Shown here one piece after another: positions 58,245 to 58,320 of a stretch of 64,000 nt of DNA. Under the pieces are notes generated by a model. It ran no database searches and was not told where the DNA came from. It was given only the letters and a program-made list of their open reading frames with translations. Each line of letters starts with the position of its first letter. Position 1 is the stretch's first letter. Where the stretch lies: the NCBI RefSeq assembly GCF_054482525.1, contig NZ_CM137006.1. One strand, given 5' to 3'. The translations under genes and the position numbers were made by a program.

Positions 58245-58290
58245 CCGCCTTTTCCCCTCACCCTAACCCTCTCCCCAGAGGAGCGAGGGG
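58245..58290. repeat. Short repetitive extragenic element (BoxC-like), tentative
   Basis: CCTCACCCTAACCCTCTCCCCAGAGGAGCGAGGGG resembles a recurrent enterobacterial intergenic repeat; identification from memory only. Confidence 0.3.
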
Positions 58291-58320
58291 ACCGATCGCG
58301 CTCAATGTTGCGATCGGTTT
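58291..58320. terminator. Bidirectional terminator between tusA and zntA
   Basis: ACCGATCGC-10 nt loop-GCGATCGGT followed by TTTGCCTTATTT. Confidence 0.55.

Follow-up and report, generated by a model that had tools for sequence, protein, structure and literature searches.

A BoxC repeat and a hairpin built on it in the spacer between the convergent tusA and zntA genes of Escherichia coli

The 101-bp spacer on which the tusA and zntA genes converge in the E. coli chromosome contains a motif that, judged by its sequence, is a copy of BoxC, an already known GC-rich, non-coding intergenic repeat of ~56-60 bp from E. coli and related enterobacteria that has also been published as the PIT element, TMECO and HPGQ. 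We consider it probable that this tusA-zntA copy, through its hairpin and the BoxC stem-loops, serves as a source of RNA-level 3'-end structures for both convergent mRNAs. The analysis covers a stretch of 64,000 nucleotides (hereafter the window; contig NZ_CM137006.1 of assembly GCF_054482525.1), and the features under discussion are collected in Table 1. A first-pass annotation of the same DNA had placed a repeat-like motif and a hairpin with a 9-bp stem in this convergent spacer; both are indeed present, and the range given there, 58245-58320, covers the feature. The 35-base motif CCTCACCCTAACCCTCTCCCCAGAGGAGCGAGGGG (58256-58290, + strand) occurs a single time in the window and has 0 matches in 100 shuffles, and on the - strand it reads CCCTCGCTCC-TCT-GGGGAGAGGG-TTA-GGGTGAGGGG. 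Beside it, the perfect inverted repeat ACCGATCGC/GCGATCGGT has arms of 9 nt that are 100% complementary and are separated by a 10-nt loop. The BoxC copy is strictly intergenic, lying 31 nt from the tusA stop codon and 34 nt from that of zntA.

Table 1. Features of the tusA-zntA spacer and its flanking genes, in window coordinates
Feature	Position	Strand	Details
tusA CDS (sulfurtransferase TusA, 81 aa)	57977-58222	+	Stop TGA 58220-58222; ORF list and RefSeq annotation (K-12 and an identical locus)
Second stem-loop on the tusA transcript	58223-58257	+	Flank TGGGGGAAG pairs with BoxC edge CTTTTCCCC; inner GGC/GCC stem; -18.6 kcal/mol, z -2.7
Full BoxC unit, ~59 bp	58252-58310	-	36-nt core, 21-nt conserved tail (58290-58310, C-block side) and ~3 conserved bases (58252-58254, G-block side)
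BoxC core CCCTCGCTCCTCTGGGGAGAGGGTTAGGGTGAGGGG	58254-58289	-	Relaxed core pattern match; K-12 ortholog catalogued
Blocks of the core		-	C-block 58281-58289; loop 58276-58280; G-block 2 58267-58275; TTA loop 58264-58266; G-block 3 58255-58263; final G 58254
Four G-tracts GGGGAGAGGGTTAGGGTGAGGGG	58254-58276	-	Regex scan; sole canonical G-quadruplex motif in the 64-kb window
Single-base difference from K-12	58282	+	A here, G in K-12 (- strand: T for C in the C-block); K-12 alignment
Equivalent of the K-12 zntA 3' end (3,608,685)	58288	-	Mapped via K-12 alignment; 3 nt past the last paired hairpin base, at the BoxC core edge
Terminator-like site for tusA	58289-58330	+	Stem 58289-58320 then T-rich tail GCCTTATTTC, overlapping the zntA stop codon; consensus scan
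Perfect 9-bp hairpin	58291-58318	both	Arms 58291-58299 and 58310-58318; loop 58300-58309
zntA CDS (Zn/Cd/Pb P-type ATPase, 732 aa)	58324-60522	-	Stop codon 58324-58326; ORF list and RefSeq annotation

BoxC was first described in the 1990s as an element of 56 bp, with about 22-32 copies reported. The family was recovered as a known one for E. coli, again at 56 bp, in an independent survey (PMC2267715), and it has been re-described under the name TMECO as a potential intrastrand triplex (PIT) element with the consensus CCCTCNCCC-N3-6-GGGNGAGGG-N3-GGGNGAGGG and 23 copies listed for K-12 (PMC4666352). Among these is TMECO no. 16, of type 'A mm', at K-12 3,608,684-3,608,719 (Table 1, PMC4666352), which is placed between zntA (b3469) and tusA (b3470) (Table S2, PMC4666352); the K-12 annotation, in which zntA ends at 3,608,649 and tusA starts at 3,608,751, is consistent with that position. 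The locus appears again as HPG1 no. 40 (midpoint 3,608,708, zntA/tusA), a putative G-quadruplex-hairpin-duplex switch (PMC5100583). The window copy is the ortholog of TMECO no. 16 (type A mm) and of HPG1 no. 40: the orthology of 58254-58289 to K-12 3,608,684-719 was tested and holds, the window and K-12 spacers have 98% mean column identity in a 3-sequence alignment, and the flanking genes are the same. The recurring enterobacterial intergenic repeat suspected in the first-pass annotation can be equated with BoxC (PIT/TMECO/HPGQ), and its locus stands in two published catalogues.

The window copy shares with TMECO no. 16 its block order, its TTA second loop, its flanking genes and its orthologous locus, but it misses the strict consensus by one base, CCCTCGCTC, and so acquires a second imperfect triplet. 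The strict TMECO pattern, which the K-12 ortholog fits, has 0 matches in the window owing to the change at 58282, the only difference from K-12 within the repeat core; when the C-block is relaxed at one position, the pattern matches 58255-58289 on the - strand. Since the failure of the strict pattern comes down to a single C-to-T change in an orthologous copy, BoxC membership by descent stands on this comparison of sequences. The second loop, TTA at 58264-58266 on the - strand, makes the copy one of type A (the types being TTA for A and CCG for B). Set against BoxC as published, the copy has no essential difference: the GC-rich core, the intergenic position, the multi-copy occurrence and the conserved tail are common to both, the length is ~59 bp here versus 56 bp in the published description, and the window copy carries one additional C-block substitution. 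Relative to HPG1 no. 40, the same locus, the 58282 change leaves the four G-tracts intact in the window, whereas it weakens the C-rich stretch whose pairing into a hairpin competes with the G-quadruplex. The effect is slight, the DNA hairpin of the core on the G-rich strand being calculated, as a Watson-Crick fold, at -10.9 kcal/mol in the window versus -12.4 kcal/mol in K-12. G-quadruplex motifs as such are not enriched in the window, with 1 found versus 2.4 expected from shuffles.

The allele with the consensus-breaking base is the commonest among 5,426 complete E. coli genomes, being exact over 65 nt in ~2,702 records (the K-12 allele is found in ~1,847). The first-pass annotation had proposed a search for further copies of the motif as its own check, and such copies are present. 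Queries with the 101-nt or the 65-nt spacer sequence against the 5,426 complete genomes place BoxC at a median of 13-18 positions per genome, and at up to 34, almost all of them chromosomal and almost none on plasmids. Moreover, nine other K-12 type-A copies, which we fetched and read directly, have the same core and the same 21-nt tail. The extent of the unit was delimited by anchoring ten copies (that of the window and the nine from K-12) on the core and comparing the column identity of their flanks. In pairwise comparison of these ten, identity exceeds background over 21 nt beyond the C-block and over ~3 nt at the G-block end, where base 58254 doubles as the final G of the core and as one of the ~3 conserved bases. 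The tail of the window copy, for instance, is identical to that of the yjdP-phnP copy at 17 of 24 positions, and the next 24 nt agree at 10.

Two other identities for the element were considered, and we see practically no prospect for either. The notion that a relative of the small RNA Hrs13 (RF02631) is encoded in the spacer comes from an Rfam search with permissive thresholds, in which a sub-threshold match to that family was the only one returned. The match is full-length (58241-58324, + strand) and weak, with 19.7 bits and an E value of 0.01-0.04 from the covariance model; at 19.7 bits against a gathering score of 52 this candidate was rejected. Hrs13 is restricted to Erwinia, its neighbours in Erwinia amylovora being ansP and EAM2411, and the match reflects the two-hairpin shape only. 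A REP/BIME (PU) unit would have precedent at this very place. Such units are the classical enterobacterial extragenic palindromes and stabilise the mRNA upstream of them; ~10% of E. coli genomes have REP units in this spacer, and REP-like units stand in place of BoxC at the Citrobacter, Klebsiella and Raoultella loci examined. The window sequence matches the BoxC core instead, and the REP consensus palindrome (GCCGGATG...CTTATCCGGCCTAC), searched as one approximate pattern, has no match in the window at up to 3 mismatches. For the window allele, the core match and the absence of REP pattern matches together refute a REP/BIME identity, at odds of survival as slight as those of the small RNA.

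The hairpin is a feature of the tusA-zntA locus that is built on the repeat, and it is neither a general BoxC property nor a separate element that follows BoxC, because no hairpin of similar strength occupies this place in the nine other copies. The window hairpin is calculated at -14.8/-17.0 kcal/mol versus -3.5 to -11.3 kcal/mol at the equivalent flank of the nine other BoxC copies. The description of the hairpin as following the repeat, as the first-pass annotation had it, is right in that the two adjoin; the left arm and the loop, however, lie inside the conserved tail of BoxC, and the right arm (58310-58318) is the only part that is locus-specific. An extended form of the stem spans 58289-58320. 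Folding of the hairpin region against shuffles gives -20.6 kcal/mol and a z-score of -4.3 for RNA and a z-score of -3.9 for DNA, with a range of -3.6 to -4.3 for the hairpin. In addition, the hairpin sequence is identical in K-12 and in the window, though the flanking spacer and both gene ends differ. In the REP-bearing alleles the homolog of the right arm lies 7 nt farther from the tail (GCGGCTTGCAATCGG vs GCGATCGG), which suggests that a small deletion may have produced the tight hairpin.

We propose that the hairpin and the BoxC stem-loops would define or protect the 3' ends of both convergent mRNAs at the RNA level, and the two strands would do so in different ways. For tusA, the hairpin would act as a Rho-independent terminator, with its stem followed by a T-rich tail. 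The sequence on this strand, in which TTTGCCTTATTT comes after the stem, resembles an intrinsic terminator of modest quality; the scan that picked it out, with a loose terminator consensus, returns 2 sites in the window versus 1.1 expected in shuffles and is weak evidence when taken alone. Compared with a Rho-independent terminator, the tusA strand has the GC-containing stem of 9-12 bp and the T-rich stretch after it, but the T-tract is interrupted and the loop here measures 8-10 nt, and the zntA strand is without a U-tract. The tusA transcript would carry a second stem-loop (Table 1), whose TGGGGGAAG run starts directly after the tusA stop codon, and the BoxC copy at hemB has the same kind of hairpin between flank and repeat edge. 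As a separate observation, the C-run opposite TGGGGGAAG could be the remnant of a lost inverted BoxC partner. At the other end of tusA we noted a terminator-like hairpin, GGCGTAAACTAGCGCC followed by seven T, at 57937-57959 (+ strand), ~18 nt upstream of the start codon; with yhhQ on the - strand, this hairpin has no + strand gene before it and would fall in the tusA leader.

On the zntA strand the hairpin is not followed by a U-tract, and for this gene the structure would serve as a pause site or as a block to 3'-exonucleases. In K-12 the zntA transcript has its TSS at 3,606,421 and its 3' end (TTS) at 3,608,685 according to SMRT-Cappable-seq (PMC6131387). The dataset counts 184 zntA reads at the TSS, 15 that end at the TTS, 64 that end at most 50 bp downstream and 38 that read through, with a median read-through of 187 nt, in a method that does not separate termination from 3' processing (PMC6131387). 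The 50 bp beyond the zntA 3' end are BoxC core. The suggestion in the first-pass annotation that such elements affect mRNA stability is documented for REP and not for BoxC; what this locus does offer in its favour is the mapped K-12 zntA 3' end, 3 nt past the hairpin. The tusA transcript is absent from the SMRT-Cappable-seq dataset (PMC6131387), curated K-12 Term-seq data for three conditions have no 3' end in the tusA-zntA spacer (PMC7815308), and the TERMITe supplements have no entry for tusA or zntA. A Rho-dependent region is reported at K-12 3,607,955 (- strand), antisense within zntA and ~800 nt past the tusA stop codon (PMC7815308). This position corresponds to about 59018 (+ strand) in the window; the region is compatible with some read-through from tusA, and an antisense promoter inside the gene may also account for it.

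Twelve BoxC loci were looked up by coordinate in the K-12 data. Three have ends (zntA, hemB and argF), adk is a case of read-through and eight have no listed end, in a sample of few loci that are not expression-matched, which is too small to support or refute a general link between BoxC and 3' ends. The hemB 3' end, at K-12 388,690, lies 5 nt past a hairpin formed by the flank and the edge of BoxC no. 5, and the argF 3' end, at 289,240, lies 6 nt past a stem belonging entirely to BoxC no. 4; adk transcripts continue across BoxC no. 6 as far as a canonical terminator at 497,938, 60 nt on (PMC6131387 table). In the zntA and hemB stems one arm is supplied by the locus-specific flank, and at zntA this arm has come to be adjacent apparently through the small deletion. 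A U-tract is missing from all three BoxC-associated ends. Ends that are protected by a stem-loop and trimmed by exonucleases typically lack a U-tract, a pattern that is established for REP elements. The BoxC-associated ends would fit this exonuclease-trimmed, stem-loop-protected pattern.

The resemblance to the REP/BIME stabilisers of 3' ends would lie in a GC-rich stem-loop in the 3'-UTR between convergent genes, with ends a few nucleotides past the stem and no U-tract. The sequences are unrelated, however, and REP has known protein partners, whereas none comparable has been reported for BoxC, for which a stabiliser role is hypothetical. The broader proposition that BoxC in general is a REP-like 3'-end element at the RNA level, seeding intergenic hairpins that resemble terminators or block exonucleases, is consistent with three of the twelve loci checked but in our judgement doubtful. 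Neither promoter nor terminator activity was seen for BoxC/TMECO elements in earlier tests (as summarised in PMC4666352), and PMC12844172, which names boxC only outside its main text, has nothing on the question.

BoxC is retained at tusA-zntA in 5,368 of 5,426 genomes (98.9%), and the short form of the spacer, as in the window, is found in 4,881 of the 5,426 (~90%). A form in which BoxC is combined with three REP units in a spacer of 260-268 bp is present in 528 of the 5,426 genomes (~10%), strain F11 included; it is without the right arm of the hairpin, and its breakpoint relative to the window allele falls immediately after GCTCAATGTTGC (window 58311). Rarer are an allele with a truncated BoxC and a 555-bp allele that has no BoxC core, with REP units and a 102-aa ORF in the spacer, so that E. 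coli has at least four structural alleles here. Beyond E. coli, the E. albertii spacer has a degenerate BoxC without the third block, followed by a REP unit and a small ORF; a cryptic Escherichia clade (Escherichia sp. MOD1-EC7003) has no BoxC in the spacer; and in a metagenome-assembled genome under the label Pseudocitrobacter this place holds a complete BoxC. The 102-aa ORF, which starts MDYLIPVCLALLGL and is annotated as a hypothetical protein, occurs in some E. coli, in E. albertii and in the cryptic clade, is absent from the window and has no Pfam match. Two Enterobacter genomes were seen to have independent BoxC copies directly 3' of tusA: in Enterobacter asburiae this is a type B copy in a different synteny, and in Enterobacter sp. 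kpr-6 it is an inverted A+B pair in the tusA-zntA spacer.

An action of BoxC at the level of DNA has been proposed for TMECO under the heading of 'genomic instability': the G-rich strand, when single-stranded, would fold into an intrastrand triplex or a G-quadruplex, stall polymerases and make the site a hotspot of deletion and rearrangement. We regard this as an improbable account of the tusA-zntA copy, even though family members form a triplex (by CD and NMR) and stop polymerase in vitro, and TMECO loci are more variable between strains than control loci (PMC4666352). A switch between G-quadruplex and hairpin has likewise been seen in vitro (PMC5100583), the G-quadruplex motif of the window copy is intact, and the spacer, with its four or more structural alleles in E. 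coli, takes yet other forms in E. albertii and the cryptic Escherichia clade. For TMECO, however, DMS footprinting in vivo showed no sign of a triplex, and the double-stranded form remained a duplex (PMC4666352). The in-vitro triplex work used consensus variants with 0 or 1 mismatch only (PMC4666352), and the commonest allele, that of the window, has an extra C-block mismatch and with it two imperfect triplets. The retention of BoxC in 98.9% of genomes, with one short allele in ~90%, argues that the locus is not very unstable, and the REP units behind much of the spacer variation are themselves mobile repeats. Moreover, the window has a positive GC skew, by which the G-rich strand would be the template of the leading strand and so less exposed as single-stranded DNA. 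The triplex, G-quadruplex and instability hypotheses fit poorly with the degree of retention and with the frequency of the consensus-breaking allele.

It is also conceivable, if on the unlikely side, that nothing here is functional. BoxC would then be a neutral relic from a time when the repeat expanded, the hairpin would have arisen incidentally when a small deletion placed a complementary flank beside the BoxC tail, and the zntA ends would be chance stalls of an exonuclease. To our knowledge, no function has been established for BoxC in about 30 years, a silence that suits such a relic. In E. albertii and some E. coli alleles, the sequence that aligns with the right arm is 7 nt farther off and beside a REP unit; the hairpin is missing from 528 genomes; and about half of the genomes tolerate the core change that breaks the consensus. 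Neutrality sits less easily with a hairpin that is invariant between the window and K-12 while the spacer flanks and the gene ends differ, with a stability far above that of shuffles and of the equivalent flank in other BoxC copies, and with the concentration of zntA 3' ends at the hairpin. The RNA-level reading that we prefer has its own difficulties. The hairpin is dispensable, because the ~10% of E. coli genomes that lack its right arm carry REP units instead; Term-seq has no ends in the spacer; adk transcripts read through BoxC no. 6; and the terminator scan (2 vs 1.1) is non-specific. On the other side stand the perfect 9-bp hairpin, stronger than the flanks of the other copies, the zntA end 3 nt past it, and the parallels at hemB and argF. 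Most likely, then, the BoxC core is a passive, long-resident repeat without a function specific to this locus, and the working role of the spacer is most likely the formation or protection of 3' ends for the two convergent mRNAs.

The presence of BoxC at this exact locus is already in the literature under four names and is, in itself, an ordinary feature. What is added here is a hairpin derived in one half from the repeat, the finding that the commonest allele breaks the strict consensus, the distinction between the spacer form with BoxC and hairpin and that with BoxC and REP units, and the position of the zntA 3' end at the hairpin. The alleles of the spacer are natural allele pairs at one locus, on which both the idea of a role at mRNA 3' ends and that of triplex or G-quadruplex instability could be tested. 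Taken together, these additions suggest that BoxC, like REP, could shape the 3' ends of mRNAs between convergent genes.
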